Below, one piece after another: positions 167-62,320 of a stretch of 64,000 nucleotides of DNA; position 1 is the stretch's first letter, and each line of letters starts with the position of its first letter. The stretch lies in IMG/VR virus record IMGVR_UViG_3300037261_000110; one strand, 5' to 3'. The DNA comes from a virus. Taxonomy: Duplodnaviria; Heunggongvirae; Uroviricota; Caudoviricetes. A model generated the notes under the pieces. That model was not told where the DNA came from and did not search any database. It saw only the letters and a program-made list of their open reading frames with translations. A program made the position numbers and the translations under genes.

Positions 167-190
167 TCGCCGCCTGGGCGCCAAAAACCC

Positions 191-975: not shown

Positions 976-3879
976 CTATCTTAGCGGTCTACCGCGAAAA
1001 ATAGCCGTCATGATTGTAGGCTCCTCGAAGCCACGAGCGGCGATCTCCTTTTGAATTTGCTCAAGCCCGCCGATAAGGTTGCGAACTGGCGGTAATCCAA
1101 TATAATTTCGACCAGCCACTATACTTTTCGGTAAGGTACCGTCCTTTGGATTTGGCAAGGTACCTGCCTGAGAATCTGACAAGGTACCTGCTCCCTCAGA
1201 ATCTTTACGGTCCTCAGTCAGCTCTTGAAGCTTCGCCTCAACTTCCTTCCTCGCCTTTTCATTGTAGTTGCGAGAGCCAGCATAGCCGACGCCAGTCAGA
1301 CGCTTAGTACCGTACTTACGCTTCGGACGCGCCCAAGCGAGATATTGCGAAGTCGAGTCGCCCTGATCCTTGTACTTGGTCTCAGGCCAACCAAATATCT
1401 CAGCTTCATATTCTGCTAGCCACCCTGAATTCTCAGGTAGATGGACCAGATGCGCTTCCATCATTGGCGTCACACCATCCATGCGAAACTCTTTCGTAGC
1501 GTTATCAGTTGAGATAGCGATAACTGCACGCGGGCAATGTGGCGAGTTTGGATCGGATTGCTGCTGAATGTACTGAGTACCAGAACCCTTGTCTTCGACG
1601 AGAACACAATCCACATCTCTCAGCTCAGCAAGCTTGTTGAGCTTGTTTGCCATCTCAAAGAACTCCACACGCTTGCGGTAGACCTCGATCAAGTAGTGAT
1701 GGTTATCTTTAGTTTCATCCCAAATCGTTGCAACCGTATAAGCTGCACGCTCGTTGTTCTTGTTGGCAGTGTCGACTGACATAACACGACGCTTCACGTC
1801 TTTGCGCTCAGGACCGATGCGATAGCGTGTACTTGTGAACCATTCACGCTTGATGACGCCACCTTGCTCGTCGATCGGCTTGCCCATATACAAGCTGTTC
1901 CAATCCTTTGCGGATTGCTCAGACTTGATCTGCGCGAGAACATCTTTCGAAAAGAACTCAGGCCAAAGCGGATCACCAAACTGGCGTCCGATTGGATCGG
2001 GAACTGAATCGTCCAAGTAAATTGCCGGCAGGTTAATGATTTCCCAAGGGGCTCCATCGACCATACCTGCCTTGATCATCTTGTTTTCGGCCTCTAGGCG
2101 TCCGCAAAGATCGTCCGAATGCCAGCGCGTCGCCACTATGAACAGTGGAGCTTTGGGAAGCAGACGCGTAAGGTAGTCAGCCTTGAACCAAGCATAGGTT
2201 TTATTGCGGATCGTATCGGATTCCGCATCCTCTCTCGACGCAAATGGATCATCGACGCCAGCAAGATTAGTTCTGAAACCTGCAATTCCTTGTCCGACAC
2301 CACGTGTCAGATAAGCAGAGCCGTTATTTAGCACCCAATATCCGGCGGCGCGCGAAGCTGTGCTTAGCTGTATGTTCGGAAACACTTCAGCATAGCGATC
2401 AGACTCAATTATATCTCTGCACTTCTTACCAAATTCGTTCTCGACGAAGTTCTGGCTGTGTCCGGCTTGAAGATATTTCGTCTTTGGAGCAACACCCATC
2501 TTCCAGGTTGGAAATAAGCGCGAGGCATACGTCGAATTATGGGTTACAATATGTCCACGACCAACAAGAAACAAACCATCTTCGCGTTCGACAGTAATGC
2601 ATTGAGTCGATTGAGTTCCTTCAATCTTCTCGAACGAAATGTAACGTCCGTATTTACCTTCAAACTCAGTTGCACGACAGACCTTGCGCCATAGCTGAAA
2701 CGCACTCTTGAAGTAGAAAGACACGCGCCAATATTCACCGCAGTCTTTTCCGTTCAACATAGCACGTCCAGGGATGATTGAATTCTTCACCCCTAACGAA
2801 AACAGAAGTTCACTCACTGCGTCCCTCAAGCGAGAATTGGTTGAACAAAACGAACACTGTCCTGACGGCGAGACCGTTCCATCACTATCCATCAATCCTT
2901 GTAGAATTGATAAACGCACGTGATAAGAATTTCGAAGATACAGCTCAGGAACATGCTTATTGTTCAAGACACCAAGTGATACCAGATGCTTTCTAATGCC
3001 TAACAAACCAAATGCAGTCTTAGTTGTATGATCAGAAGTATGAACTCCGCACCATTCAATGCGCTCACGTACTTCCGGCTGATCCTTCACATCACATGTT
3101 ATTGTCGGTTGATCGGAATGCCCGTCGCCTAACCAATATCCAAGAACATAAGGATCAAGCGGAATCGTACGAGCCTTATATTCGACTGCTTCAAAATTTG
3201 GAAGTTTTGCACGGCGAGGAGATGTTCGATTGGCAAGATATTCAGTTGGATATGTCTTCCAATAATCACGCTTGCGATCTAATCGAACTGTCCACAAATG
3301 TTCCCCATCAACTAAAACAGCTTGTCCATCATCAGTGTATACACGATAGATTGTACGATTTTCAAACACCGGCGATTTTGCGATTATCTTAGTTGTTGTG
3401 CCGTCTGGTCCGTAAACCTTGTCACCGACTTTCAACTCAGCAATCGTTTTGTAACCGAGCGGAGTTGGAACCTTAGTATCCAGCACCATCGCTTTTGCAT
3501 GTCCTGGTGGCGCCGATATCATTAGACGCGAGTGCATTCCCTGTGACAAATCTGTCAGCTTATTCAGCATGAAGACATGCCAATCAGCCGGTGGTTCATC
3601 CGGAAAAATGTATTCACAATATGCAGTTAGGTCTTTTGGCGCGAGCTGAAGCAGAGCGCTCATGTACTCATTCGAAGTGCTTTCGTAAAGCTCTTCAAGT
3701 GCAATCAGCTGTTGCGCGGGATCGGTAGTACCTGTAAGTTCTATTATGAACTTAGTCTTTGTCGGCGTCAACATCGACTGACGTATCAGTGATGTTTCCA
3801 GCTCCGTCGCCACCATCTTCAGGTTCGTCAGTGACTTCCGTATCTGCTTGCGCGTCTTTTGCGAGATTATTTGCAGCAT
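976..3879 (-). CDS. terL: Terminase large subunit (TerL) interrupted by an in-frame intein. The extein N-terminus may start at the internal Met at 3816 or 3774
   Basis: Motifs: ATRWHSDDLCGRL, DGAPWEIINLP, FIVATRWH. A P-loop-like PPGHAK|S is split by about 319 aa that begin with a Hint block A and end in HN+S. Confidence 0.9.
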   Translation of the reverse strand: MLQIISQKTRKQIRKSLTNLKMVATELETSLIRQSMLTPTKTKFIIELTGTTDPAQQLIALEELYESTSNEYMSALLQLAPKDLTAYCEYIFPDEPPADWHVFMLNKLTDLSQGMHSRLMISAPPGHAKAMVLDTKVPTPLGYKTIAELKVGDKVYGPDGTTTKIIAKSPVFENRTIYRVYTDDGQAVLVDGEHLWTVRLDRKRDYWKTYPTEYLANRTSPRRAKLPNFEAVEYKARTIPLDPYVLGYWLGDGHSDQPTITCDVKDQPEVRERIEWCGVHTSDHTTKTAFGLLGIRKHLVSLGVLNNKHVPELYLRNSYHVRLSILQGLMDSDGTVSPSGQCSFCSTNSRLRDAVSELLFSLGVKNSIIPGRAMLNGKDCGEYWRVSFYFKSAFQLWRKVCRATEFEGKYGRYISFEKIEGTQSTQCITVEREDGLFLVGRGHIVTHNSTYASRLFPTWKMGVAPKTKYLQAGHSQNFVENEFGKKCRDIIESDRYAEVFPNIQLSTASRAAGYWVLNNGSAYLTRGVGQGIAGFRTNLAGVDDPFASREDAESDTIRNKTYAWFKADYLTRLLPKAPLFIVATRWHSDDLCGRLEAENKMIKAGMVDGAPWEIINLPAIYLDDSVPDPIGRQFGDPLWPEFFSKDVLAQIKSEQSAKDWNSLYMGKPIDEQGGVIKREWFTSTRYRIGPERKDVKRRVMSVDTANKNNERAAYTVATIWDETKDNHHYLIEVYRKRVEFFEMANKLNKLAELRDVDCVLVEDKGSGTQYIQQQSDPNSPHCPRAVIAISTDNATKEFRMDGVTPMMEAHLVHLPENSGWLAEYEAEIFGWPETKYKDQGDSTSQYLAWARPKRKYGTKRLTGVGYAGSRNYNEKARKEVEAKLQELTEDRKDSEGAGTLSDSQAGTLPNPKDGTLPKSIVAGRNYIGLPPVRNLIGGLEQIQKEIAARGFEEPTIMTAIFRGRPLR
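2536..3492 (-). mobile_element. Intein with a LAGLIDADG homing endonuclease domain, inserted in the TerL P-loop
   Basis: N-terminal block A-like (A)MVLDTKVPTPLGYKTIAELKVGDKV. Two LAGLIDADG motifs, LGYWLGDGH and LQGLMDSDG. C-terminus GHIVTHN followed by the +1 Ser. Confidence 0.8.
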
Positions 3880-4369
3880 CTTCTTGTTCTTTATCCATTT
3901 TTCGGAATGTATGCACTAGATTTGCGAGGCTCGAAGCAGTAGGTGCCTTAGACTTTTTCGTTTCAGAAATTCCGCCACGATCAACACCATTTTTACCGAG
4001 CTTACCCCACATTCCAAGATATTCGCCCATCAGTTCAATGCAACGAAAAGCTGCGTTATGCTGCTTTTCTAGCTTTGCGTTCTGAGCAAGCAACATAAGT
4101 TGTTCAAGCACCCACGTCTTTGTGAGTTCAAGGTCTTCGTCAGTCTTCGGACCATTCTTGAGAATGTCATCGATCGCCACAATCGATCCTTCAGCCGCCT
4201 CTATCTTCAGTTCGCGTATGCGCGCCTGAATCTCAAGCTGATGAAACATTTTTGAAGCGTTGCCTGGGTTTGGCGAATATCCGGCTTTTTCATATGAATC
4301 AGTAATGCCGCCGCCACGAACTATCAGGCTGCAAAAGTTCTCTCGACGAATATCTTGTAATTTCATCAT
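3752..4369 (-). CDS. terS: Terminase small subunit (TerS). The annotated start is an internal Met; the open frame extends to 4546
   Basis: Terminase_2-like motif ITDSYEKAGYSPNPGNASKM, an acidic C-terminal tail, and it overlaps the terL start. Confidence 0.7.
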   Translation of the reverse strand: MMKLQDIRRENFCSLIVRGGGITDSYEKAGYSPNPGNASKMFHQLEIQARIRELKIEAAEGSIVAIDDILKNGPKTDEDLELTKTWVLEQLMLLAQNAKLEKQHNAAFRCIELMGEYLGMWGKLGKNGVDRGGISETKKSKAPTASSLANLVHTFRKMDKEQEDAANNLAKDAQADTEVTDEPEDGGDGAGNITDTSVDVDADKD

Positions 4370-4511
4370 CTTACTTCTTGTTTGAGCCACATGATCAATG
4401 AAGAGTAACCAACCGACCGACCACTTATCTACCCACGTTTTTATTCTGCGGGTCTTCCTTCGATATTTTCCAATACGTATTTTCTGCTGATGTGCAAGCG
4501 GACTCCCTGGT

Positions 4512-5183
4512 TCACTTGGAAACGGTTTCCTTCCCATCGAATTCAATCACTGTTCTTGGTTGGTGTCCCTGATCGAACACACCATACATCGCAATCAGGC
4601 TGGCTTCCGCCCTGCCGTCGTCCTTTTTACGCTTGAACTGCGCGGCTGCACTTGGAAAGAGCTTCGAGGCACGCGCACGCGACAAATCCTTGTCAGCTCC
4701 GCATCCCATGCGCGCCTTCCAGATTGAAGGACGAACTTTGACAACCCTTAAGCGAAGTGATGCAGCAACGCCAAGAATCGTCCCAAGGCTGGCGCCGAAG
4801 GTGAATCCGTTCACACCACCATCGTGGACCATTCCCCAAACATCCTCTATATAAAGGATATTGCTCGGATGCTTACGCAGCCAACTGACGACCGCGTACG
4901 CATCAACCTCGCGTCGATTGGCAGTAGCTCCGAACACGTGGACTGGCATATCCAGGATGGCTAGCTTGCCCGCATACTCGTCAATCGCGGCTAGAGCGCC
5001 GGAATTGCCTGGATCAACTCCAATCGTCCAGAACCCGCTCCCAAGCCCGGCAAAGTTCTTGTCATCGACGAACCTCGCCTTGCAATCAGCCAGCGTCTTA
5101 CCATCTCCGCCCTCTGGCTCCGCCAGATGGCTTCCCGCTACGCGGGCCGAAACCACGTCGTTCGCACGATCTTCAGTAAACAT
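4512..5183 (-). CDS. RuvC-like Holliday junction resolvase
   Basis: Motifs IGVDPGNSGALAAID and ILYIEDVWG, and a basic C-terminal region. Confidence 0.65.
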   Translation of the reverse strand: MFTEDRANDVVSARVAGSHLAEPEGGDGKTLADCKARFVDDKNFAGLGSGFWTIGVDPGNSGALAAIDEYAGKLAILDMPVHVFGATANRREVDAYAVVSWLRKHPSNILYIEDVWGMVHDGGVNGFTFGASLGTILGVAASLRLRVVKVRPSIWKARMGCGADKDLSRARASKLFPSAAAQFKRKKDDGRAEASLIAMYGVFDQGHQPRTVIEFDGKETVSK

Positions 5184-5667
5184 ACTTCGTACATGCCATA
5201 CAACAACGTAAAAGTAAAGTAAAAGCACACATAGGGTCATTTTGGTTTGGTTCCCCACACCCTTCCGTGCGGGGCGCGAAAAGCTAAAAGAGCAACGTTC
5301 AAAAAGTAGTGTTTTTTAGCAAAAGCTAAGCTTTCTGCGGATGTGTCATAAAATCCACAACTTTTCGACCTACCACTTTTGGCCCCAAAACCCTTTATTT
5401 CTTTAGATAAGATCAATCAAAAGAATAAAAGAATAGTGGGAACCAGGAACACCAAACCAGTCAGGGTAAAACGCTTCGAAAAAATTTCTGTGCCTGAGCT
5501 GGTACAGTGAGACACCGGCGCAGATATTTGTGCCGGGCATTTTCCCCGCGACTGGTTCCGTGTTCCTCATTTACACTACGGTTTTTGAGCTTTCGTTGTA
5601 ATTCCAAGCCTTTTCACAACAATTTAATTGTTGATATTGACTTAATTGACCGTTTGTGCTGTACAGC

Positions 5668-40057: not shown

Positions 40058-40911
40058 TGTCGATAGTAGCTTACTCAGCCGGGCTCGTTATCACGGATGG
40101 ACGCATAACCGTTGACGATTATATTGCGTCCGATTCGTGGGTAAAATTCCAAGAGCTGAAAAATGGCAATGGGTATATCGCGTTTACCGGCGATCTCTCC
40201 GCTTTTCAACCCATGAAGGAATGGGTAGAGGCAGGTGCCGATAATCAGGAGTGGCGTCCTAAAATAGAAGCGACGGTTATTGTGTTCGATTCCAATGGAA
40301 CGATCCGCGAGTTTGAAGATGATGGGCTTATAATTACCGAAGCGCATTACACACGTGTATGGGGCTCAGGAGCGCCGTACGCGTCAGCAGCGATGTGTGC
40401 CGGCGCTTCCCTACTGGAAGCGGTTAAGGTCGCGATCAAGTGCTGTTCGAGCTGCGGCGGCCTTATACAGACCTACGATTACCCATCTGCCTGGGTTCGC
40501 CGGATTTGCCTCCCGCGATTAAACCGGGTAGTTTTCCTTCTTCAGACGATCGCGAACTTCCTGCATCGGCGGGAACGGAATCGTGCTTGTGCGGACTCTC
40601 GTATTCGTTGTTACGACGATATCCACACCGAAGTATTTCTTCACCTTCTTCTCGAAGGCTGGATAAGGTCTGGCGCGGCGCGTTGCGCCAACGCCGGCAG
40701 TGCTCATGGCTCGACGGTAATGCTGGTAGACCAGATCGGCGTCATGCTCAGCGCCTTCATCGTCGGAAATGAAGAACGGCTCAAGATCGTCATCCTTGAC
40801 TCCGGTACGAGAACCGTTTGCACGGATCAAGTCCAGAAAGAACTCGTCTTCCGGAGGAGTCGATTGGATGACCTGTTCCTTGAGCCACTTAGTGTTCGGC
40901 GGAAAGCGTAG
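40057..40911 (+). CDS. HslV-like (proteasome beta-type, Ntn-hydrolase) peptidase. The 3' end is uncertain and the protein probably terminates near 40520-40600
   Basis: MSIVAYSAGLVITDGRIT (Thr/Ser nucleophile after Met1) and VWGSGAPYASAAMCA (HslV GSGGxYAxAA). The open frame continues only because it is antisense to the primase gene. Confidence 0.55.
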   Translation: MSIVAYSAGLVITDGRITVDDYIASDSWVKFQELKNGNGYIAFTGDLSAFQPMKEWVEAGADNQEWRPKIEATVIVFDSNGTIREFEDDGLIITEAHYTRVWGSGAPYASAAMCAGASLLEAVKVAIKCCSSCGGLIQTYDYPSAWVRRICLPRLNRVVFLLQTIANFLHRRERNRACADSRIRCYDDIHTEVFLHLLLEGWIRSGAARCANAGSAHGSTVMLVDQIGVMLSAFIVGNEERLKIVILDSGTRTVCTDQVQKELVFRRSRLDDLFLEPLSVRRKA

Positions 40912-43338
40912 AACGTTCCAATCATCTACTTCGGTATTGAGCATGTCGTAAAGGAACGCGGCTTGTACGTCCGGATCAGCCACGGCTTCGGCGAGCTTGA
41001 CAAAATACTCCTTATCACCAACCTTTTCCTCAGACGGGCTTATAATGAAGAAGCGGCGCTCGTCATAAGTTGCCGGAACAACCCATTCTTCATTCGAGAG
41101 GAAAGCGACGCGAGTATAATTGCTGCCCTGGAATGGCATCATGCCCTTGAACTCGTAGGTGATGTTCTCGCCCGTCAATAGGTGCTTTAGAACTCCTTCA
41201 CCTGCCATGTCACCCGCCCACACTGCTTCTTCGAGGCAAACATAGAGCTTGCCGAATAGATGCGCATTGAACTGTCCAACGATCTGCGTGCGATTGGCGA
41301 TCGTTTGTGCATATTGTTGGAGTAGCTTGTTCAGGAATACGTCGAAGATAAGCGACTTGCCGGTTCCCTTCTTGCCGCGCACAACTATAGCCGCGCCAGT
41401 CTTCTCGCCTGGACGTTGAAAGATGTGTGCAATCAAAGTCATCAAATACTGAAAATTTGCATCGTCGCCACGGCAGATGATGTCTTTGATGTGATTGCGG
41501 ACCAATGACCAATCGCCTTCTTCTGGTTCTAGGTTAAACCCACGCCAATGATTAAAGACGCGACCGCGTACGATGTTTGGCGGCGGTTCGAAGATCAGTC
41601 CTGCATCATAAGTTTTGCGACCATCCCATTCCATGAAGCATTTCCCGATGTTGAATTTTTTCATTTGCATGCCGGTGCCACTCGGCTGCATGACACCAAC
41701 GTTTTCGTTGCAGCGGAGCTGCTTGTAGGTTTCGACTGACATGATGTCATACGGATCGTTCGGATAGGTGGTTTTTTCATTGGCTTTCAGTACGGAAAGA
41801 TCACCCTTGATCAGGACCACGGAAAATCTTTCGGTTTCTCTTTCGAGCCGATGAAGAACTACCTCCGGAAAGTCGCCGATCTTGTCGTCTTCTTTTTTGA
41901 CTGGCGTTGCTTCCGCCTTCTGGTAGTCGGCTATCGTCTTTTTGATGACGCCGGCTTTCGCGCCTTTCGTCTTATTGTACGTGAGCGTAGCGATTTCATC
42001 AAGTTGGATCGCAGTAGGAAAAGTCTTGGCAACGGCTTTAGCGAAAGCATCGGTGTTTGTTCCGTGGATTTTGTTGTCGTCGTTTTTCAGCCAGTCGATG
42101 ACTTCGGCGGCGGACGCAAATGTCGTCTTGTTGGCTTCGGCGTCCTCTTCGTCGGCGATCTCCGCGACGAACGGCATTAGGTCTTCGACCGTGAAATTGG
42201 CTTCTTGGCAGATCAGGTCGAGTAGGTCGACGCGATCCAGCTCCGCGCATGAGTCGTGCATGCACTTGAGAATGAAGTGATGGCTGGTCGGGTCTGTGCT
42301 CGCGAAGAAACCCATGTCATCGACGTTGCCGGCGTCGCTGTGCGCGTCGTCATTGGGACAGGCGACCGTGACCTTCTGTCCATCATCCTTGCGCACGTCG
42401 AACAGGCTGCGACACATTTCGGCGGCGTCAAAGTGAGTGCTGTGCTTCGCGACGAAGCGCATGAGCCCTTCGGTTTTATGATCCTTGCGTGCTTCTTCAC
42501 CTTCTTCGATCCATGGGTTGTCTGTCTCAAAACCCTTGGGATCGATACCCTTGATTTCTTCGATATCGAGTGCTTCGCCGGTGGTGACGCGGAAAACAAA
42601 GTCGTCGCGTCCCTTGGGATGGCGCGGGGTGTACATCAGGCGGGACGGATCGGAGCACGCGCGATCGGCGGTCGCGTTCAAAAGCCTCGCCACGCCAAAA
42701 TACTTTGACTTCCACTCCTCGATAGCCTTTTTCTGGCTACCGCCGCGCTCGGCGATCACAAACGGTTTGGATAGGACCAGGATGACGCGCAGCTTCGGCA
42801 TCGGCGCGTGCTCGATTATGAGCTGGATGCCGTCATTGTCCTGAATTGTCGATGCGATATGCATCGTTTTCAGGATACTAGGGTTGACGCGTTTGATTTC
42901 GCGCATGTAGCCGATGACCTGATCATCAGTCAGCTCGGAGTCGCTCTTCGCCCAGGTCAGAACCTTGTCCTTCTTGATTTTGGTTTGGGTTCCATTGTGC
43001 GAATAGGTTGTGTGAATGATTGCGAACAGTCCAAGCTCTTCGCATTTTTTCTCTATGCGTTCGATCGAATCGCCGGTGTCGATGTCGAGAATGACAAGAG
43101 AGAGCTGATCGACGGCGGTCGATTTTCTGTCGCTTACGTTGCGCTGTCCGGAAGGCAAAACTGTGCCCTGCAAGATGGACATGCCATCCTTTTGGCCTTC
43201 TTCATGGTGCGAGAGAAATTCGACGAGCTGGCGTACAGTCGAAGTGTGGGCAGGCCACTTGAATGCACGAGCTTCCTTGGCTGACGCGATCGAAACAGTC
43301 TGGTCGAGAATTGGGCAATCTTCAAGTTCGTCTGACAT
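40519..43338 (-). CDS. Primase-helicase with an N-terminal AEP/PrimPol-like domain and a C-terminal D5/P4-type SF3 helicase domain
   Basis: LVILDIDTGD (DxD motif) and Walker A VVRGKKGTGKSL; 939 aa. Confidence 0.7.
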   Translation of the reverse strand: MSDELEDCPILDQTVSIASAKEARAFKWPAHTSTVRQLVEFLSHHEEGQKDGMSILQGTVLPSGQRNVSDRKSTAVDQLSLVILDIDTGDSIERIEKKCEELGLFAIIHTTYSHNGTQTKIKKDKVLTWAKSDSELTDDQVIGYMREIKRVNPSILKTMHIASTIQDNDGIQLIIEHAPMPKLRVILVLSKPFVIAERGGSQKKAIEEWKSKYFGVARLLNATADRACSDPSRLMYTPRHPKGRDDFVFRVTTGEALDIEEIKGIDPKGFETDNPWIEEGEEARKDHKTEGLMRFVAKHSTHFDAAEMCRSLFDVRKDDGQKVTVACPNDDAHSDAGNVDDMGFFASTDPTSHHFILKCMHDSCAELDRVDLLDLICQEANFTVEDLMPFVAEIADEEDAEANKTTFASAAEVIDWLKNDDNKIHGTNTDAFAKAVAKTFPTAIQLDEIATLTYNKTKGAKAGVIKKTIADYQKAEATPVKKEDDKIGDFPEVVLHRLERETERFSVVLIKGDLSVLKANEKTTYPNDPYDIMSVETYKQLRCNENVGVMQPSGTGMQMKKFNIGKCFMEWDGRKTYDAGLIFEPPPNIVRGRVFNHWRGFNLEPEEGDWSLVRNHIKDIICRGDDANFQYLMTLIAHIFQRPGEKTGAAIVVRGKKGTGKSLIFDVFLNKLLQQYAQTIANRTQIVGQFNAHLFGKLYVCLEEAVWAGDMAGEGVLKHLLTGENITYEFKGMMPFQGSNYTRVAFLSNEEWVVPATYDERRFFIISPSEEKVGDKEYFVKLAEAVADPDVQAAFLYDMLNTEVDDWNVLRFPPNTKWLKEQVIQSTPPEDEFFLDLIRANGSRTGVKDDDLEPFFISDDEGAEHDADLVYQHYRRAMSTAGVGATRRARPYPAFEKKVKKYFGVDIVVTTNTRVRTSTIPFPPMQEVRDRLKKENYPV

Positions 43339-48413: not shown

Positions 48414-50678
48414 ATGAAAATAGAGACCGCCGAGAGAGTAGCCGAGTTTGCTGGTTTTCTTGAAGAGAAAAGCTTCACGATAGCAGCAAACGGTAAAGCT
48501 TTTCGGGTCCTCATTGATAAACTTTACTCAAACGTTCATCAAGCTATTGTACGCGAGCTGATGACGAATGCTTGGGATGCGCATGTTTCGGCGGCAAATC
48601 TAAAACCTTTCGAAATTCACGTGCCGACAGCGTTTGAGCCCTTCTTTTCTATTCGTGACTTCGGCTGTGCAATGACTCACTCAGAAGTCATGAACGTCTA
48701 CTCGACGATATTCGAGTCAACCAAGGATGCTCGTGACGATCAGGTCGGCGCCTGGGGCCTTGGCTCAAAAACACCTTTCGCCTACACTGACACTTTTGGC
48801 GTGCAAGTCTGGCTAGATGACCGCCATAGGGTGTATAATGTCTTCATAGATGCGACCGGTGTCCCAAAAATCGCCCTGGCGCTCGACGAAGAGAATGACG
48901 GTGCCGCGAACGGCGTTGAGGTATCCTTTCCAGTCGGTGTCAAAGATGCCGGTCTTTTTCGAACCGCGCTCGAAGTGGTTAGCATTGGCTTCGAAGTCAA
49001 GCCAAAATTTTCTGGTTCGCTCAATGTTCTGGAATTAGAGAAGCGTCGTCAAGGTGCTGGCTGGTTCACGTTCGTCTATTCCAGTGGACCAACATGGTTG
49101 AAAAAGCCGGTTGCTCGGGTCGGCTGCGTCCTCTATCCGATCAAGCTGGACGTGGTGTGTGATCTCATAAGAGACAAAGCGACGAAGCCAGAGTGCTGGC
49201 AGCTTTTGTCCAGCGTGCATGGTTTTCCGGGCACGCCAATGATCCTCGATTTCCCAATTAGCTCGATCGAAGTCACAGCCAATCGTGAAGACTTATACTA
49301 TTCGGAACGAACTGTCAAGTCTATTGTTGATAGATTCGAGACAATCGTTCAGGAAATGAAAGCTGAGTTTTTAGCTAATATCAAGAAAGGCAAGACTCTC
49401 TATGAAGTGAATATGGAAGTCCTCGAAGTCTGCGAGATGTTCGCCGACGTTGCCTCTGGCGTCTCTAGCTATCTCCGTGATTTTGCTCGGCAACAGAGCT
49501 TCAAAGGACGAAAGCTTCTTCACAAAATCGTTTTTCGACATAGATACAAAACGGTTGAGGAAAAGAACGCTGCCGGTGAGGCAGTCATTTATCGAGTTCC
49601 GACTCGTTACAATAGCATTCAATTCGTCTACTATCTAGGCTCGAAATTCATTCGTCAACCAGGACTGCAATTCTGTGATTCTGAGGAAATGTCTTGGACT
49701 CCGCGTGTTACCGACTTCTTCGTTGAGCTGCCGGGCGAAAAGGGTAAGCGCGTGCCGTACGCTGCTCGCCGCATTCGTCACGAGCGCAACGAAGCCGGCA
49801 CGACCGTGCGCCACGATCTTATGTGGATCAAGACACCCTCACTCTCGGACCCTCACTTCGTAAAAATGTGGATCGGGCTCGGGCGCCCGCCTTATAAACT
49901 GGTCAACGATCTGGTGAGACCGCCGGGCATTCCGACCGAGCGCTATATAACCCCGATGCGCATTTATAATTCGAATGCAGATACGTGGGAAAGGTATGAC
50001 GATTTCGACGTTGAGAATGACGCCGGGTTTTATGTGATGCTCAACTGCGGGCTTCCGGAGCATATAAAGAGCGTGAAGCTCTGCGATCTGATCGGATTTC
50101 TGGAATCAAAGCGCGCGATCCACAATGCCCGTCATATCATTGGCATCCCAAAGAGCCGCAAGTCAGTTCTCTCAAAATCCGATCAATGGATTGACATGGT
50201 TCCCGTCCTTAAAGCAGCCTACCGCAAAGCGCTCAACGTGAAGCAGGCAGCGGTCAGTTTCAGTGTTAAAGAGATCACAATCGACAAAGGGGATCAAGGC
50301 ACGTTAGAAAGATTGAACCGCAAGCTTGGTAGGTTTGATCCGGCGTCGCCGTTCGTTCAAGCGATTAAAGCCTATGATCGGTTGGGAGCGATTGAGGCGA
50401 CAGCTGCCGAATTTAAGAGTGCCTGGAATCATCGATGGGTGCTTGATTATGAGGAGCGTGCGAAGCTCGACGAAGAATACAACGCGCTCGCCAAAAGTGA
50501 CCCGGCGCTGGTTTCTGAGATTGGCTCTATCAAGTCTGCCATCGAAGGTGTTTTTCAAGCCTATCCTTTACTGCAAAAAGTGCCATATCCCGATCAAGAT
50601 GCTTTGAAAGCACTCGACGACTATATTGTAGCGATGGACTGTTTTAGAGGGGCGCTTGCTAGTGGCTTACAAAAATAA
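48414..50678 (+). CDS. rIIA: rIIA-like protein (GHKL ATPase-domain protein)
   Basis: FRVLIDKLYSNVHQAIVRELMTNAWDAH matches the T4 rIIA N-terminus (VVRELITNMIDAH); also GAWGLGSKTPF. Confidence 0.8.
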   Translation: MKIETAERVAEFAGFLEEKSFTIAANGKAFRVLIDKLYSNVHQAIVRELMTNAWDAHVSAANLKPFEIHVPTAFEPFFSIRDFGCAMTHSEVMNVYSTIFESTKDARDDQVGAWGLGSKTPFAYTDTFGVQVWLDDRHRVYNVFIDATGVPKIALALDEENDGAANGVEVSFPVGVKDAGLFRTALEVVSIGFEVKPKFSGSLNVLELEKRRQGAGWFTFVYSSGPTWLKKPVARVGCVLYPIKLDVVCDLIRDKATKPECWQLLSSVHGFPGTPMILDFPISSIEVTANREDLYYSERTVKSIVDRFETIVQEMKAEFLANIKKGKTLYEVNMEVLEVCEMFADVASGVSSYLRDFARQQSFKGRKLLHKIVFRHRYKTVEEKNAAGEAVIYRVPTRYNSIQFVYYLGSKFIRQPGLQFCDSEEMSWTPRVTDFFVELPGEKGKRVPYAARRIRHERNEAGTTVRHDLMWIKTPSLSDPHFVKMWIGLGRPPYKLVNDLVRPPGIPTERYITPMRIYNSNADTWERYDDFDVENDAGFYVMLNCGLPEHIKSVKLCDLIGFLESKRAIHNARHIIGIPKSRKSVLSKSDQWIDMVPVLKAAYRKALNVKQAAVSFSVKEITIDKGDQGTLERLNRKLGRFDPASPFVQAIKAYDRLGAIEATAAEFKSAWNHRWVLDYEERAKLDEEYNALAKSDPALVSEIGSIKSAIEGVFQAYPLLQKVPYPDQDALKALDDYIVAMDCFRGALASGLQK

Positions 50679-53663: not shown

Positions 53664-55447
53664 CGGCGGCATTTACGCCGCGACGATCGCCTTCCAGCAA
53701 CGACTGCGCTTTCGAGCTGACGGCTGGCTTTGGAATCCAGACCTAAAAAAGTGGACGACCAAGGATAGGACGAAAGTCATCCCTTGGCTTCCATTCTGCG
53801 TCGGGCGCGCGCGTGAAGTTCTCGACGATCAGATAGAGCACGAGCGCGTCAGGATGGCGCCTAGTTTCGCTGCGGACGCCGATATCGACATACCGGTGCC
53901 CGTAGCCTTTCATATACGGGACAGAAAACCGTTTGAGTATCATCCTTTTCAAAAAGCGGGAATCAAATTCATTCACGAGCACAAGGATACCCTGCTCGCC
54001 GATCCTCCTGGGCTCGGTAAAACCATTCAGGCGATCGGCGCCTCAAACTTGGACGCATCAATCCGTCGCGTGCTTATTATCTGCCCGGCTTTCATGAAAA
54101 TCCATTGGGAGCGTACCTGGACGGATTGGGACGTTAAACACTTATCGGTCGGCATCGCCCGAACGCACTCATACCAGAAGGATCGAGTTATTCATCGGGA
54201 GCATGTTTGGCCGAATAGCGACGTTGTGATTATCAACCCGGAGCTGTTGGAGGCGTTTGACGAACATACCAAGGCGCTCGAATGGGACTTGATGGTTATC
54301 GATGAATGGCACCTTGGATTCCCAACCGGCAAATCAAAGCGCTTCAAGTCAGTCTTCGGCGGACGTTACACCAAACCCAAAAAGAAAGAAAAAGCCGAAG
54401 CCGGTGACGATGGACTTCCGTCCGATACGGGCGAAGAAGCGCCTGTTTCTAACCGGGACTCCCCTCACGGCGAGGCCGATTCAGCTGTGGTCGCTGTGTG
54501 AGAAGGTCGATCCGCGCGGGCTCGGACGCAGCTGGAAGAGTTTCATCTATCGCTACTGCGGCGCCCATCATGACGGGTTCGGCATTGACACTCGCGGCGC
54601 GACCAATCTGGATGAACTACAGTACAAACTGAGAACATCCTTCATGATTCGCCGTGACAAAAAGGAAGTCATGGGAGAGCTGCCGCCGAAGTCGCGTCAA
54701 GTTATCGTGATGCCGGACGATGGCATTCAGAAAAAGGTCGAAAACGAGCTGTCGGCGGTTCGCGGGCTGGTTTCGCTCTACGAGAATTTAGTCGGGCTAG
54801 CGCCAGCAGAGTCGATCGAACAAACCGATAATCGCTTCTGGCAGGCAGTGGCAACGGTTCATGGGCGCTTCATCGACGCCAGCTTGCAGCTCTCGCAGGA
54901 TTACAGTCTCGCCTTCGAGGAGCTGTCGAAGGCGCGCAAGGAGCTAGCTTTAGCTAAAGTTCCGCTCGCAATCCAGTACATCAACAACCTAATGGAATCG
55001 GGCGAAAAGGTCATCGTTTTCTGCCACCATACGGTCGTCGCTGAGGCGTTAAAATCACACTATCCTCAGTGTGCTTATATCACCGGCAAAGTCCCTACGC
55101 AGAAGCGCCAGGGGCAGGTAGACCGCTTCCAGGACGATCCGAGCTGCAACCCAATGATCGGCAACATCGACGCTGCCGGCGTTGGATTCACGATGACAGC
55201 GGCGTCCCACGTCGTCTTCGTTGAACTGGTGTTCAACCCGTCAAATATGGAGCAAGCCGAAGACCGTGCATGGCGCGACGGGCAAGAGAACGCTGTGCTT
55301 GTTCATTTTCTCGTGGTGGATCACTCTTTCGATGCTCGAAATATCACGATTCTAGAAGAAAAAGCTGAGGTTTTAGAACAAGTTCTGGATTCCAACAAGT
55401 ATCGTAGCTTAAGCTTTCTTGCGGATATGCTAGCCGAGAATCGTTAG
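53644..55447 (+). pseudogene. SNF2-family helicase split into two frames (53644..54501 and 54302..55447) by a 1-nt shift inside an A-rich tract at 54372..54395
   Basis: ORF1 carries motifs I (ADPPGLGKT) and II (MVIDEWH). ORF2 carries motif III (LFLTGTP) and motif VI (QAEDRAWRDGQ). Confidence 0.75.
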
Positions 55448-56140: not shown

Positions 56141-56811
56141 ACCTGGAAGAATTTAACGAGTATCGTCGAACGCTGAATGTTTCCGATCCTGCCGTAATTA
56201 ACCTTGGCTACGAAAAGATCGCTCGTGATCTGTATCCAAGTCCGGAGTGGATTGGATATTCGCTCTTAAACGCGAAGGTTATCCCAAAGAACTACGTGAT
56301 ATGGGAGCCGGCGGCTGGTAATGGTGTACTAGCAAATGCTGCCAGAGAAAGTGGCTATGACGTAGTATCTTCAGATATTCATCCCAATTGGGTTGTCAAC
56401 GATTTCACTTTCGATTTTCTAAAACTAAAAACCGGAGAAATACCATACGGCAAGCTGCAAAACTGCAATCGACTGGCTATTTGGACAAACCCACCGTTCG
56501 GAGATCGCTGCAAGCTTGCTGAGAAGTTTATCGAGCACGCGATAGAGCTGACCGAGCCGATGCTTGGCATGGTCGTAATGCTCGGGCGCAGTGACTTCGA
56601 CTTCGCTCGTAGCCGCAGGCATCTGTTCGGGGAGAGCCCGATATTTGCTGGTCGCTTGAACATGTCAAAGCGTCCACGTTGGATTGCCGGCACCACCGGA
56701 GCACCACGTTTTAACTACTCTTGGTATTTTTGGGATTGGCAGAAAAACCCGAAAGAAAACCCGATTGTTTTGTACGACTACTACAATGGGAAAGATGACG
56801 ATGACGATTGA
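56137..56811 (+). CDS. N6-adenine DNA methyltransferase (orphan)
   Basis: Motif I EPAAGNGVL and motif IV IWTNPPFG. Confidence 0.75.
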   Translation: MNLEEFNEYRRTLNVSDPAVINLGYEKIARDLYPSPEWIGYSLLNAKVIPKNYVIWEPAAGNGVLANAARESGYDVVSSDIHPNWVVNDFTFDFLKLKTGEIPYGKLQNCNRLAIWTNPPFGDRCKLAEKFIEHAIELTEPMLGMVVMLGRSDFDFARSRRHLFGESPIFAGRLNMSKRPRWIAGTTGAPRFNYSWYFWDWQKNPKENPIVLYDYYNGKDDDDD

Positions 56812-58402
56812 GAAAAAGCCATACAAGGATTATACCTTGTTCGAACTGATTGAGCTTGAAGAAGAGCTTGGTAGCGAGCGTCAAGTCTGCAAATTCTTGG
56901 AGTGTCCGCGTTCGTCGTTTCAGAACCACATAGCTGAACTCAAGGCGGAGGCTTTCAAGGATCGACCGCAGAAGGCAGCTGTTCGCATCGATCCACTGAA
57001 GACCGGAGTTAAGCGCTTCATCTTTACATCAGCCCAAGACTCAACCAACGTCTTCAAGCCGTTCCTTATCAATCTCCTCGCCTACGCCGACTATTGGGAC
57101 GCGGACCTTCGCATCGGTGGCTTCACTTACAACAAGAAGCTGTTCGAGGATCACTCGAAATACCACGCCTATTTCGTCGAAGAAGTTCGTCCATATCTCT
57201 GCAACGATCGACTAGAGATTGGTCCAAATCTCGTATTTCTCGGCGAGATGAACACTCTTCCGACTGCCGTGTCTCCGCTGAGTGGTCTTGAGGGCTATAC
57301 CCAAAATCGCTCGGGTATCTTCCCGCATGCCAAGGTCCAGATGCAATCGATCGGGACGATAAAAGGGCAACGTCCGAAGACACTGGTTACGACAGGTTGC
57401 GTGACGCTGCCAAACTATGTGCCTAAGAAGGCGGGTATCAAGGCTGAGTTTCATCATATCCAAGGCGCCGTGTTTGTCGAGCTGATGCCGAACGGTGATC
57501 CTTTCATGCGTCACCTGATGGCAGATCACAATGGCAACTTCCAGGATTTAGACTGGCGCATGGACGATGGTGAGATCAGCTTCGGAAATCCAGTCGAAGC
57601 AATCACTCATGGTGACATTCATTGGGAGAATATGGATCGTACCACCGCCGGGCTTGTTTGGTTTAACGAGAAGGACACACTGGTCGACGTGTTGAAGCCA
57701 CGCTTTCAGATTTTCCACGACACACTCGACTTCGACAATCGCAGTCATCATCGTATTAAGGACTCGCATCATTTGTTCAAGATGCATGTTCGTGGTGACG
57801 ATTCGATCGAAGAGAATATGATAGGTATCGGTGATTTCCTTCTACAAACCTCGCGCGACTTCTCTCATTCGGTTGTTATTGAATCCAACCACGATCGTCA
57901 TTATCTCAACTGGCTCAAGACGGCAGATTTTCGTCTTGATCCGGCGAATGCTCAATTGTTCCTTTGGGCTACGCTTGAGTGCTATAAGGCAATCGAAGCC
58001 GGCAATGATAAGTTCTCGATCTTCGAACACACTGTTCGTGAATATGGTCCGGAGTTGCTAAAGGATAAAGTGGAATTCGTTCGCGAGGACGGTTCCTTCG
58101 TCATCTGTGAGACGCCCGATCGCGCTGGTATCGAGAATGGTTTACACGGGCATCTCGGAGTCAACGGCTCGAAGGGCTCGGTAAAGGCTCTCACCAAGAT
58201 CGGGCCTCGCACGAATAGCGCTCACACGCACTCGCCAACGATCATTGACGGCGCCTATTGTGCCGGCACTTATTCGAAACTCGATCTGGAATGGAACCGT
58301 GGGCCTAGCTCGTGGGCGCACGCCTGCATCGTCACTTACCCGAACGGTAAGCGCACGATTGTTCAATTTTGTAACGGGATGTGGCGCGCTCCGCTCGACT
58401 AA
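56795..58402 (+). CDS. Large protein with an N-terminal HTH and calcineurin-like metallophosphoesterase motifs
   Basis: HTH (LGSERQVCKFLECPRSSFQNHI); GDIHWEN, ESNHDRH, HGHLG, AHTH in canonical order. Confidence 0.5.
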   Translation: MTMTIEKKPYKDYTLFELIELEEELGSERQVCKFLECPRSSFQNHIAELKAEAFKDRPQKAAVRIDPLKTGVKRFIFTSAQDSTNVFKPFLINLLAYADYWDADLRIGGFTYNKKLFEDHSKYHAYFVEEVRPYLCNDRLEIGPNLVFLGEMNTLPTAVSPLSGLEGYTQNRSGIFPHAKVQMQSIGTIKGQRPKTLVTTGCVTLPNYVPKKAGIKAEFHHIQGAVFVELMPNGDPFMRHLMADHNGNFQDLDWRMDDGEISFGNPVEAITHGDIHWENMDRTTAGLVWFNEKDTLVDVLKPRFQIFHDTLDFDNRSHHRIKDSHHLFKMHVRGDDSIEENMIGIGDFLLQTSRDFSHSVVIESNHDRHYLNWLKTADFRLDPANAQLFLWATLECYKAIEAGNDKFSIFEHTVREYGPELLKDKVEFVREDGSFVICETPDRAGIENGLHGHLGVNGSKGSVKALTKIGPRTNSAHTHSPTIIDGAYCAGTYSKLDLEWNRGPSSWAHACIVTYPNGKRTIVQFCNGMWRAPLD

Positions 58403-58403: not shown

Positions 58404-58874
58404 ATGATCGCCCTTCAATTCTCAACTCATACAGGACTAGCATCACTAGCGATCCGCAGCTTCACTAGAGGCTGGGTGACTCATGTTGACTGTGTGCTGC
58501 CGGATGGACGCCTATATGGCGCGCGTATGCATGGAGGCGTCCAGGCACGTTTGCCGGACTATACCAAATTCAAGCAAACAAAAATTCTCTATCTTCAGAC
58601 GACGCGCGAACAAGAGAACGCCTTTTATAGCTTCCTGGATGCACAATTAGGTAAGCCGTACGATTGGACGGCGATATTCGCCTTTGTCGTCAATCGTGAT
58701 TGGCGTGAGGATGATAGCTGGTTTTGCTCCGAGTTGATCATAGCTGCCTTAGAGTTCGCCAAGATTATTCGCAAGCTTTCAACGTCCTCGAACAGAGTAA
58801 CACCTGAAATGGGTATGTTCATGATTTCGGCGATCTGTATCGATCCGCCCGGTTTTGTGGAAGCAGTCTTTTGA
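58404..58874 (+). CDS. Hypothetical protein
   Basis: 156 aa; ATG directly after the upstream stop. Confidence 0.5.
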   Translation: MIALQFSTHTGLASLAIRSFTRGWVTHVDCVLPDGRLYGARMHGGVQARLPDYTKFKQTKILYLQTTREQENAFYSFLDAQLGKPYDWTAIFAFVVNRDWREDDSWFCSELIIAALEFAKIIRKLSTSSNRVTPEMGMFMISAICIDPPGFVEAVF

Positions 58875-61039
58875 TCAACACCAACTTCGCCTACGATACG
58901 CTTGTCTATGATTTGGAATCGGACGGTTTACTAGACCGGCTGACGCGTATCCATAGCCTTATCATTCGTCATTATGAGACCGGCGATGTTTATGTGTTCC
59001 GCAGAAACAAGACGGAAGATACGATTATAAACGGCGTGCGCATGCTTGAGCGCGCGAAAGTCCGTGTCGGACATAATGTCATTGCTTTCGACGAAGAAGC
59101 CATCAAGCTAGTCTATCCGGATTATAACCCGCAAGGAAAATTGCGCGACACCCTGCCTATGGTCCGCATGCTGTTTGCCGATCAGAAGGATAAGGATTTT
59201 CGTCTATGGGAGCGCAACCAGCTCCCTGGTCAGTTGATCGGTGCCAATACCCTAAAAGCATGGGGCTATCGCGTTGGGCTTAACAAAGGTGACTATGCCG
59301 ATGATAAAGCCGCCGAGGCTAAGGAAAAAGGCATCACTGATCCTGACGAGATAATTCAATACGTTTGGGGCTCCTGGAATCAGGAGATGGAGGATTACTG
59401 TGAGCTTGACGTTGATGTGAATGTTGCATTGTGGGCGAAGTGTTTGCGCGCGCAATGGCCCGAGCCATCGATTGTATTTCAGCATCAGGCGCACAGCTTG
59501 TGGTCGGACGCAGAGAAGAACGGTATATATTTTAGGAAAGAGGAAGCGGAAAAGCTCGCCGAGGAAATCAAGGTCGAAGCAGAGAAGTTAGGTAAGATCG
59601 CGATCGAGCATTATGGGGTTTGGTTCGCGCCTGGGAAAAAGTACATCGTAGCGCCACTATGGGACGATCCCGGTGGCGTCAACAAGAAGAAAAAATATCC
59701 CGAGCCGCGTAAGAAATGGGGCGAGGATTTGTCTCGCTCGATTTGGGGCGAGATATGCATTCCTAAAAAGTCGCTGAAATTCAAGGACCCGAACCGTGGC
59801 GATCGGTTCGAAGGCGCAGCTTTCTGTCCGATTGTCTATAAGGAGTTCAAACCGACTTCACGCCAGATGATCATTGACCGTTTTACGGTGATCTATAACT
59901 GGAAGCCGTTCGAAGACGATTTCACCGAGAAGGGTAATCCGGAAATCAATGACGAAGTGCTCCGCAACCTGATTGGGAAGATTCCCATGGCTGAGGAGCT
60001 GGCGGAAGTCTTCTATCTTAACAAACGACTAGGACAGATCGCGACCGGTAAAGAGGCGTGGCTAAAACACGTCGATGCGGAGGGAAAAATTCACCCACGC
60101 TTCAACGTCGGCGCAACGTTGTCTGGTCGTGTCGCGCATTCTAATCCCAACATCGGTCAAGTCCCGCGCGTCGTTAAAGTCGACGTGAAAAACAAGGATG
60201 GCTCACTTAACAAAAAGGTTTTAGGACCGGACGGTAAACCAATTGCCGCCTGCTTTGATGCGAATGGTGAGTTCAAAAAGAAGGTTGTCTTAAAGGGTAG
60301 AAAAGGCAAGCACGGCTGGGATTGTCGCCATCTGTTTTATGTGCCTCCGGAATGGGGCATCATGGTTGGTTGCGATCTAGCCGGTATCGAGCTGCGCTGT
60401 CTCGCCAATCTCGCGCAGCCGTTCGACGACGGCGTGCTGATCGATATCATCCTGAATGGTGACATTCACGCCATCAACCAAGCTGCCGCCGGCCTCGATA
60501 ATCGCGATCAAGCCAAGACACTGATCTACGCGCTGATCTATGGTGGCGGAGATCGTAAGCTCGGAGCCATCGTCCAGCCGCTCGCCGACGAAGAGACGCA
60601 GCGCAAGCTTGGCGCTGAGATGCGCGCTCGACTGATGCTCAACGTGCCGTCGCTGCGCTTCGCCGTTGAGTGGGTGAAGAAACATGCCTCAAAAGGGATT
60701 TTACCAGGACTCGACGGTCGTCGTCTGTTCGTCCGCTCGCCGCACTCGGCGCTCAATTTGAAATTGCAAAGCGACGCGACGCTGATTGCGCAGAAGTGGG
60801 GTTTGCTGTGCGAAGAAAGCTTGCTCGATATGGGCTTGGAGCATTCCTGGAACGGTGACTTTGTATTTCTTATGTGGGTCCATGATGAAATACAGATTGC
60901 TCTTCGTCATGGTGTCGATGTTGCAGAAGTTGAGACTCGCTTGACCGACGCCGCAGCTAAAGCAGGGCTGTATTTCGGGTACGTTTGCCCGGTCGCGGCT
61001 GAAGCAAAGCATGGAGCTGATTGGGCGATCACGCACTAG
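58871..61039 (+). CDS. Family A DNA polymerase with an N-terminal 3'-5' exonuclease domain (T7-like)
   Basis: Exo I (VYDLESDG), Exo II (GHNVIAFDEEAI), motif A (DLAGIELRCLANLA), motif B (RDQAKTLIYALIYGGG), motif C (VHDEIQI). Confidence 0.85.
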   Translation: MINTNFAYDTLVYDLESDGLLDRLTRIHSLIIRHYETGDVYVFRRNKTEDTIINGVRMLERAKVRVGHNVIAFDEEAIKLVYPDYNPQGKLRDTLPMVRMLFADQKDKDFRLWERNQLPGQLIGANTLKAWGYRVGLNKGDYADDKAAEAKEKGITDPDEIIQYVWGSWNQEMEDYCELDVDVNVALWAKCLRAQWPEPSIVFQHQAHSLWSDAEKNGIYFRKEEAEKLAEEIKVEAEKLGKIAIEHYGVWFAPGKKYIVAPLWDDPGGVNKKKKYPEPRKKWGEDLSRSIWGEICIPKKSLKFKDPNRGDRFEGAAFCPIVYKEFKPTSRQMIIDRFTVIYNWKPFEDDFTEKGNPEINDEVLRNLIGKIPMAEELAEVFYLNKRLGQIATGKEAWLKHVDAEGKIHPRFNVGATLSGRVAHSNPNIGQVPRVVKVDVKNKDGSLNKKVLGPDGKPIAACFDANGEFKKKVVLKGRKGKHGWDCRHLFYVPPEWGIMVGCDLAGIELRCLANLAQPFDDGVLIDIILNGDIHAINQAAAGLDNRDQAKTLIYALIYGGGDRKLGAIVQPLADEETQRKLGAEMRARLMLNVPSLRFAVEWVKKHASKGILPGLDGRRLFVRSPHSALNLKLQSDATLIAQKWGLLCEESLLDMGLEHSWNGDFVFLMWVHDEIQIALRHGVDVAEVETRLTDAAAKAGLYFGYVCPVAAEAKHGADWAITH

Positions 61040-61045: not shown

Positions 61046-61717
61046 GTGCTTGACAGATTAACCACGATGTGCTACGACAGACAAATAATGCCGATCACGA
61101 TTTACGTCATTGAGAACGGTGTCAATGACAAGAAATATGTAGGGCAGACTTGCGGACCTGTTGATAACAGGTTCCGACAGCATTGCACTAAAAATGGCTG
61201 CACAGCCATCTATCGAGCTATCACAAAGCACGGTAGAGAACAATTTTCGATCCGTACGCTTTTCGTCTGTCCAGACGATCAAGCGTATGCAGACGAGATG
61301 GAGTGTTGCGCGATCAAGGTATTCGGAACGACGGTCCCGAATGGTTACAATCTTCAAGAAGGTGGATCGAATGGAAAGCACTCCATAAAGACAAAGGAGA
61401 AAATGTCAGCTACCGCAATGGGACATGAGGTTTCAATTGAAACGAGAGCAAAATTAGCATCTGCTAATATTGGAAATAAACATGCTCTTGGATTCAAGCC
61501 ATCAACTGAAACTAGAGCTAAAATGGCGGCAGCTCAGAGAGGTAATAAAAATCAACTTGGACTAAAACGATCGCCAGAGACTTTGATAAAGATGGCAGCA
61601 GCTCAACGAGACAAGAAGTGTTCAGCTGCCACAGCCGCTAAAATATCAGCATCACTGGTTAACTACCACAAAAACAAGAAAAAGAAGACAACAAACGATG
61701 CGCGTACTTACATTTGA
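61046..61717 (+). CDS. GIY-YIG homing endonuclease with NUMOD3 repeats
   Basis: IYVIENGVNDKKYVGQT and three repeats of SxETRAKMAAAQRGNK. Confidence 0.8.
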   Translation: MLDRLTTMCYDRQIMPITIYVIENGVNDKKYVGQTCGPVDNRFRQHCTKNGCTAIYRAITKHGREQFSIRTLFVCPDDQAYADEMECCAIKVFGTTVPNGYNLQEGGSNGKHSIKTKEKMSATAMGHEVSIETRAKLASANIGNKHALGFKPSTETRAKMAAAQRGNKNQLGLKRSPETLIKMAAAQRDKKCSAATAAKISASLVNYHKNKKKKTTNDARTYI

Positions 61718-62318: not shown

Positions 62319-62320
62319 TG

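Follow-up and report, generated by a model that had tools for sequence, protein, structure and literature searches.

Descriptions of class 3 inteins in the P-loops of large terminase subunits (TerL) go back to 2010, and their occurrence at this location was already recognized at the time of the definition of the class. Here we describe an insertion in the TerL gene of a 64,000-nucleotide stretch of DNA from an uncultured tailed phage (IMG/VR record IMGVR_UViG_3300037261_000110; the whole stretch is referred to below as the window). The insertion is very probably a bifunctional class 3 intein, in which a LAGLIDADG homing endonuclease is nested in a HINT splicing domain, and it sits in the P-loop of a Terminase_6-type TerL. 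Class 3 inteins are defined by having no nucleophile at position 1 and by the WCT triplet, formed by Trp at B:12, Cys at F:4 and Thr at G:5 (PMC2807308, PMC5050341). Their +1 residue is usually Ser or Thr, and splicing is initiated by the block F Cys, an obligate nucleophile (PMC2807308, PMC5050341, PMC6195587, PMC7664689). Class 2 inteins of the KlbA type, in contrast, depend on Cys+1, have Asp at F:4 and are without the WCT triplet (PMC2807308).

The prototype of class 3, the DnaB intein of mycobacteriophage Bethlehem (MP-Be), has His65 and Trp67, the obligate block F Cys, Thr-His-Asn and a Thr or Ser at +1 (PMC2807308). It shares its P-loop location and phage origin with the window intein and defines the mechanism that we propose for the latter (PMC2807308). 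By its published description, it differs in having Pro1 and a DnaB-like helicase as host. The Mycobacterium smegmatis (Msm) DnaBi1 and M. chimaera DnaB1 mini-inteins (PDB 6bs8 and 6rix/6riy) have in common with the window intein Ala1, the D62-x-x-H65-x-W67 arrangement, the block F Cys, THN and Ser+1. Their insertion point is likewise the P-loop of an ATPase, and the +1 Ser doubles as the P-loop residue that coordinates Mg. However, these mini-inteins have no endonuclease, and their host is a bacterial replicative helicase and not a phage terminase.

Closer counterparts are found in other phage terminases. A tblastn search found related inteins in 792 GenBank phage records, the best matches being the TerL inteins of Gordonia phages YungMoney (E 5e-56) and APunk and of Mycobacterium phage Kostya. 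These three are 35-38% identical to the window intein over ~100% of its length (E 5e-56 to 1e-37) and, like it, are full-length inteins that combine a class 3 splicing domain with a LAGLIDADG endonuclease. They occupy the same Walker A point, between Lys and Ser or Thr, with junctions (marked here and below by a slash) reading GPQTGK/ALALDT...TRN/S, RKNGK/ALDVET...THN/T and SQVGK/LVAHDT...THN/S. The mycobacteriophage TerL P-loop sites were catalogued by Kelley et al. in 2016 (site TerL1-a), with insertion between Lys and Thr as the "classic" P-loop insertion (PMC5050341). In that catalogue the P-loop sites are in TerL of the Terminase_1 type, and TerL6 inteins occur only in the C-motif (PMC5050341), whereas the window extein is of the Terminase_6 type, has the P-loop PPGHAKST and belongs to an uncultured phage of ~150 kb.

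A homologous Terminase_6-type TerL is encoded by Caulobacter phage CcrRogue (JX100814), where it is annotated as 'intein-containing putative terminase large subunit precursor'. Its intein (L010, 589..1611) is at the identical site (NCPPGHAK/...HN/STYASRLF), starts with Pro1, without an N-terminal nucleophile, and has a block F Cys (C-R-C-L-T-V-E). It differs from the window intein in belonging to another lineage, in its length of 341 residues, in a block B that reads D-H-S-F and has no Trp, and in a block G that reads VVVHN, with Val in place of Thr. Based on these motifs, the CcrRogue intein is possibly a non-WCT variant of class 3 at the same site. The TerL of Mesorhizobium phage Cp1R7A-A1 is like that of CcrRogue (...VVHN/STYCSRLFP). 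In a 2025 survey of actinobacteriophages, 293 TerL inteins and 287 class 3 inteins were recorded. A class 3 intein in a TerL P-loop is a well-documented configuration, among the commonest phage intein niches, and the one described here leaves existing knowledge unchanged and would not surprise a specialist. Two aspects are mildly new: no intein relative is more than 58% identical to the window intein, and a WCT-type class 3 intein is present in a Terminase_6 P-loop of an uncultured phage of this size.

The TerL gene lies on the minus strand, as do all features of the precursor given below. The mechanically called open reading frame (ORF) spans 976..3879, extending to an ATG at 3879, with its stop codon at 976..978. 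Gene callers used M36, at 3774, as the TerL start on public contigs, which gives a precursor gene at 976..3774 and a product of 932 residues with matches to Pfam Terminase_6N and Terminase_6C and to PHROG 38. The N-extein (3493..3774, 94 residues) ends in the Walker A segment ...RLMISAPPGHAK, with Lys-1 at 3493..3495. The C-extein (976..2535, 519 residues and the stop) comprises the remainder of the ATPase domain and the RNaseH-like nuclease domain (Terminase_6N and Terminase_6C), and its segment STYASRLFPTWKMG is kept in intein-less alleles. When the exteins were ligated in silico, Terminase_6N scored 35.6 bits (cutoff 22) and Terminase_6C 35.4 bits (cutoff 22.6), and TerL matched PHROG 38, the terminase large subunit, at 2.4e-93. 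Judged by these profile matches, the host protein is a large terminase of the Terminase_6 type, with an N-terminal ATPase domain and a C-terminal RNaseH-like nuclease domain. A phmmer search of the ligated extein against PDB sequences gave no match at E <= 0.01, and sequence comparison thus pointed to no solved TerL. As a megablast search of window positions 1-12000 against 50,697 GenBank phages gave no match, there was no close cultured relative to use and comparisons were made at the protein level.

The insertion (2536..3492) is in frame, consists of 319 residues from Ala1 to Asn319, and splits the TerL Walker A motif between its Lys and Ser (PPGHAK/.../STYASR). In the ORF translation PPGHAK is followed directly by AMVLDTKVPTPLGYKTIAELKVGDKV..., and the C-terminal end ...GRGHIVTHN is followed by STYASRLFPTW. 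The codon of Ala1 is at 3490..3492, that of Asn319 at 2536..2538 and that of Ser+1 at 2533..2535, so that the original prediction, which had placed an element of roughly 319 residues at 2536-3492, was exact. To place the insertion among its homologs we searched the precursor against a collection of 5.8 billion proteins, obtained 1391 matches at E <= 1e-10 and classified the top 120, a list that is biased to intein carriers, the query having contained the intein. The P-loop was uninterrupted in 32 of the 120 TerL homologs (pattern PPG[HS]AKSTYASR[LIM]FP[TSA]W or PPGHAKSTYASR), 48 had an insertion of ~320 residues exactly between the Lys and the Ser or Thr, and in 40 an insertion was located two residues upstream.

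Four intein-less homologs, P0003, P0006, P0008 and P0009, are 80, 68, 65 and 65% identical to the window protein in the extein, and at the insertion site they read PPG[HS]AKSTYASRLFPTW. P0003 is encoded on a 56.7-kb contig (L006) that has the gene order of the window: a resolvase-like gene, the small terminase subunit gene (TerS), TerL and DUF932. When the window flanks were joined across the junction and compared with the L006 DNA, the identities were 37/60 and 48/60. The Pfam Terminase_6N match is likewise partial with the insert in place (profile 73-214) and full-length once the 319 residues are deleted (1-214 of 215). Because the intein-less alleles are continuous across the site, both boundaries are fixed and a hidden Cys1 or Ser1, which the original prediction had considered as a way in which it might fail, is excluded. 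Further, from Ser(-8) in the N-extein up to Thr6 in the intein there is no intervening Cys, Ser or Thr. The split of the P-loop at PPGHAK/S that had been proposed is therefore correct, and these sequence comparisons confirm a genuine insertion with sharp boundaries in a conserved host protein.

The insertion contains splicing blocks A, B, F and G in this order; its last residue is Asn, and the residue at +1 is a nucleophile. Block A (AMVLDTKVPTPLG, 3454..3492) starts with Ala1, hence without an N-terminal nucleophile, and pairs residue for residue with ALALDTPLPTPSG of Msm DnaBi1 (6bs8) in a phmmer alignment. Block B (GQAVLVDGEHLWTV, 3286..3327) holds D62 (B:7), H65 (B:10) and, two residues past H65, W67 (B:12, the W of WCT); the block B residues of Msm DnaBi1 are Asp62, His65 and Trp67, with the same numbering (PMC6195587). 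Block F (STQCITVEREDGLFLVG, 2560..2610) carries the aromatic F308 and, at F:4, Cys298, the C of WCT and the predicted initiating nucleophile. It aligns with VRCVEV...LYLAG of 6bs8, which places C298 opposite the catalytic Cys118. Block G (GHIVTHN/S, 2533..2556) contains T317, the T of WCT, directly before H318-N319, and ends with Ser+1, which doubles as the Walker A Ser.

The assignment to class 3 is further supported by the order of the matches among PDB chains. The best phmmer match was the M. smegmatis class 3 DnaB intein 6bs8 (E 1.8e-14), followed by the M. chimaera class 3 DnaB inteins 6rix (2e-12) and 6riy (about 1e-11 to 1e-12), and after these by PI-SceI (2e-6), which was matched in its endonuclease part. 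Similarity of this strength is far beyond chance, and the class 3 nature of 6bs8 and 6rix has been established by experiment (PMC6195587, PMC7664689). The paired segments of the window intein and 6bs8 were AMVLDTKVPTPLGY with ALALDTPLPTPSGW, DGEHLWTV with DAQHQWPT, and TQCITVEREDGLFLVGRGHIVTHN with VRCVEVDNPEHLYLAGPGMVPTHN, and A1, W, C and THN were all aligned between the window intein and 6bs8/6rix. The features that define class 3 are thus found in the window intein (Ala1, W67/C298/T317 and Ser+1). The Hint block A, the two LAGLIDADG motifs, the terminal HN and the Ser+1 that had been read from the letters could all be located, and blocks F and G, whose lack had been named as grounds for doubting an intein, are both there and conserved. 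The original prediction had also described the Ala1 intein as "class 2/3-type"; Ala1 and the class 3 part are borne out by the WCT triplet and Ser+1, and the class 2 part is not.

To determine which residues are maintained, we took 46 inteins inserted at the same site from the top matches and aligned them. H65, W67, C298, T317, H318 and N319 were invariant in all 46. Position 1 was Ala in 40/46 and Cys in none, and the +1 residue was Ser in 40 and Thr in 6. D62 was present in 40/46, D123 was Asp in 41 and Asn in 5, and D204 was invariant. A separate alignment of 40 sequences, whose members are 37-58% identical to the window intein, had as invariant positions D24, H65, W67, T296, C298, F308 and T317-H318-N319 in the splicing part, L117, G118, W120, L121, G122 and G124 in the core of the first LAGLIDADG motif, K179 and P182 in block D, and D202, D204 and G205 in the second LAGLIDADG motif. 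F308, the block F aromatic ten residues past the catalytic Cys, corresponds to Phe330 of the prototype, which is needed for splicing (PMC2807308). The fixed columns are therefore the splicing and endonuclease catalytic residues, a pattern that is expected if these elements must still splice and home.

The 40 homologs with an insertion two residues upstream (P0013, P0052, P0057, P0085 and others) were observed to have a class 3 intein with the junctions PPRH/A...THN/[TS]KSEF, in which the +1 Thr or Ser sits at the Walker A Gly position. In these inteins the W, C and N are present in 40/40, the T in 38/40 and the penultimate H in 39/40. They are 40-51% identical to the inteins at the window's site and formed a separate clade in a crude neighbor-joining tree, so that the two groups look like sister lineages on adjacent P-loop sites. 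We also noted that P0016 (1544 residues), P0033 (1382 residues), P0031 (1253 residues) and 17 other TerL homologs are longer than 1000 residues and have room for two or three inteins; the precomputed Pfam matches of these long proteins include Hint, Hint_2 and Intein_splicing besides LAGLIDADG_3.

The LAGLIDADG homing endonuclease domain (2653..3195, approximately intein residues 100-280) is nested between blocks B and F. Block C, the first LAGLIDADG motif, is at 3118..3153 (PYVLGYWLGDGH, residues 114-125, with the acidic D123), block D is at 2938..2967 (LNNKHVPELY, with K179 and P182), and block E, the second motif, is at 2872..2910 (SILQGLMDSDGTV, residues 195-207, with the acidic D204). The acidic residue at motif position 8 is kept in both motifs, VLGYWLGDG (D123) and LQGLMDSDG (D204). 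Pfam LAGLIDADG_3 matched residues 193-240 at 28.3 bits (cutoff 22.5; 2.1e-6), with a weak match to Hom_end, and phmmer aligned residues 114-145 to PI-SceI 209-239. A CxxC in this domain (C213-x-x-C216) was considered as a metal site and dropped, as homologs do not keep it.

An AlphaFold2 model of the intein, built with the 40-sequence alignment, had a mean predicted local distance difference test score (pLDDT) of 95.7 and a predicted template modeling score (pTM) of 0.92. The top whole-molecule match of the model in a Foldseek search of the PDB was PI-SceI (E 8e-21, template modeling score for the query, TMq, 0.80), and the TliVMA and PhoVMA inteins and PI-PfuI were also matched. The splicing domain matched the class 3 DnaB mini-inteins (template modeling score for the target, TMt, 0.81-0.84), and the endonuclease domain matched I-DmoI (E about 1e-5, TMt about 0.55-0.57) and I-Tsp061I (TMt about 0.55). 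In the model, the architecture is that of a HINT domain split by a LAGLIDADG domain. PI-SceI, the yeast VMA1 intein, has the same two-domain layout, and its LAGLIDADG motif region aligns with that of the window intein, although it is a class 1 intein (Cys1, Cys+1) of 454 residues with ~18% sequence identity.

The base composition and distribution of the intein provide a further line of evidence. Its guanine-plus-cytosine (GC) content is 0.439, and 0.364 at third codon positions (GC3), versus 0.501 and 0.513 in the C-extein. Such a GC value puts the intein among the lowest 0.5% of all 957-nt windows in the 64-kb sequence, for which the mean is 0.516 and the standard deviation 0.031. The four closest exteins are all intein-free, and the closest intein (that of P0002) is 58% identical, while its extein is just 51% identical. 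No second intein of the family was found in the window when a hidden Markov model (HMM) of the 46 same-site inteins was run with filters off against all six-frame ORFs of at least 60 residues; the TerL intein scored E 2e-135 and the next best ORF 0.13. The sporadic distribution, atypical composition and lone family copy point to a mobile element.

Some observations weigh against a bifunctional class 3 intein. Pfam detects just one of the two LAGLIDADG motifs, and the support for the other comes from its motif pattern, its alignment with PI-SceI and the match in fold. In addition, the WCT triplet by itself is insufficient for class 3 splicing, as its grafting onto the gp41-1 intein resulted mostly in cleavage and not in splicing (PMC7664689). 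A rival reading is that the intein is competent to splice and its endonuclease is no longer active, in which case the intein would have reached the post-fixation stage of homing and be inherited vertically only. That the nearest intein is only 58% identical, with no sign of very recent transfer, is in agreement with such a state. However, D123, D204 and Lys179 of block D are kept and are conserved family-wide, the domain is modeled confidently and matches PI-SceI and I-DmoI, and the closest exteins lack an intein, a situation that maintains an active endonuclease. We consider an inactive endonuclease to be unlikely, albeit not strongly so.

The gp41-1 grafting result (PMC7664689) is also the point in favor of a degenerate, non-splicing insert, such as a decayed intein, a bacterial intein-like (BIL-like) domain or a domesticated endonuclease domain, with a TerL that is either inactive or works with the insert in place. 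This is very improbable, as H65, W67, C298, F308, T317, H318, N319 and S+1 are all intact, and the invariance of exactly those columns in relatives only 37-58% identical indicates purifying selection for splicing. Moreover, an ATPase cannot function with its Walker A Lys and Ser separated by the insert. The window precursor also has an exact counterpart in metagenomes, protein P0001, called as 932 residues on 12 contigs; these come from several samples, and the longest one listed is 149 kb. Recurrence of an identical allele in several samples, together with the need of the phage for a working TerL P-loop, argues for splicing; it speaks indirectly for a viable phage and, by extension, for maturation of TerL.

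A class 2 intein of the KlbA type, in which the +1 residue would attack the N-terminal junction directly and there would be no block F nucleophile, fits the Ala1 and the consequent absence of an N-terminal nucleophile, and this option had been left open by the original prediction. Known class 2 members have Cys+1, Asp at F:4 and no WCT triplet (PMC2807308), whereas here the +1 residue is Ser, F:4 is Cys298, W67 and T317 are there and are invariant in 46/46 relatives, and class 3 inteins are the best matches by sequence in the PDB, which leaves class 2 extremely improbable. A canonical class 1 intein with a shifted boundary, starting at a Cys, Ser or Thr, has hardly any probability at all: no evidence favoring it was found, the intein-less alleles give the ligated ...GHAK-STYASR, a +1 or -1 shift predicts GHAKATYAS or GHANSTY, seen in no homolog, and there is no Cys, Ser or Thr from Ser(-8) to Thr6 at which it could start.

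For a class 3 intein, the likely sequence of events can be drawn from the model systems of the class 3 pathway, the MP-Be DnaB and Msm DnaBi1 inteins (PMC2807308, PMC6195587). In the precursor, the Walker A Lys and Ser would be 319 residues apart, which would prevent ATP binding and leave the enzyme ATPase-dead. The thiol of Cys298 (F:4), positioned and activated by His65, Trp67, Asp62 and Thr317, would attack the Lys(-1)-Ala1 bond and form a thioester-linked block F branched intermediate. The N-extein would then be moved to the hydroxyl of Ser+1, forming the block G branched ester, and cyclization of Asn319, aided by His318, would release the intein. An O-to-N acyl shift would restore the native PPGHAK-STYASR P-loop and with it an active TerL of 613 residues. 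Ser+1 would accordingly be the splice nucleophile first and the P-loop Ser afterwards, as is the +1 Ser of DnaBi1 (PMC6195587). The endonuclease (D123, D204) would be expected to cut the P-loop coding DNA of intein-less TerL alleles during co-infection, and repair of the cut allele would copy the intein in (homing). We infer this splicing and homing, including the branched intermediates and the endonuclease activity, from sequence, homology, predicted fold, conservation, distribution and composition.

The related class 3 intein Msm DnaBi1 is reversibly blocked by oxidation or zinc. Since the TerL intein combines an internal thiol nucleophile (Cys298) with a split Walker A motif, TerL maturation could in principle be blocked by redox state or zinc. 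By analogy, the intein might be more than a selfish element and act as a conditional switch on DNA packaging, with oxidation or zinc reversibly blocking maturation via Cys298; if so, the time at which packaging starts would depend, through conditional splicing, on the redox or metal state of the host cell during infection. We regard such a switch as quite improbable. DnaBi1 differs in having a regulatory Cys48-Cys118 disulfide, whereas the N-terminal splicing lobe of the window intein (residues 1-100) has no Cys; the disulfide partner Cys48 is without a counterpart, and conditional control would need another route.

These data have several practical consequences. For annotation, the 932-residue "terminase" is to be read as the precursor of a 613-residue enzyme and a 319-residue mobile element. 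For studies on phage populations, the window and L006 provide a well-delimited pair of intein-plus and intein-minus alleles. For protein engineering, a class 3 intein of full length is available whose structure is modeled with very high confidence.

The gene directly upstream of TerL encodes the small terminase subunit (TerS, 3752..4546, minus strand; Pfam Terminase_2 2.7e-5, PHROG 51 6.5e-12) and overlaps the TerL start. Next to TerS is a gene for a RuvC-like Holliday junction resolvase (4512..5258, minus). On the other side, the ~1.3-1.6 kb from the TerL stop to the next called gene (DUF932) had no convincing ORF in intein-plus or intein-minus phage (window 1..975; L001 8800..10125; L006 9690..11247). 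Rfam at gathering thresholds found nothing in the whole window, this ORF-poor stretch included, and ARAGORN found no tRNAs in the window.

Elsewhere, the window encodes a DUF5906 primase-like protein of 939 residues (40519..43338, minus). Further genes are at 48414..50678, 54302..55447, 56684..58402 and 62805..63893 (all plus strand), and their products are an RIIA-like protein, an SNF2-type helicase, a 'DNA transfer protein' PHROG and a RecE/Cas4-like exonuclease. By their sequence matches, the surrounding genes confirm a large lytic-type phage.

Two free-standing, paralogous ORFs resembling homing endonucleases, with GIY-YIG and NUMOD3 domains, were observed near the other end of the window at 61046..61717 (plus, 223 residues) and 62318..62815 (plus, 165 residues). 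They bracket a DnaQ/RNase_T-like exonuclease gene (61698..62318, plus), and the group is located directly downstream of a family-A DNA polymerase ORF (58871..61039). With the TerL intein and these GIY-YIG ORFs, the phage carries several kinds of mobile endonuclease. The second GIY-YIG ORF is within the other lowest-GC patch of the window, at a GC of about 0.43.

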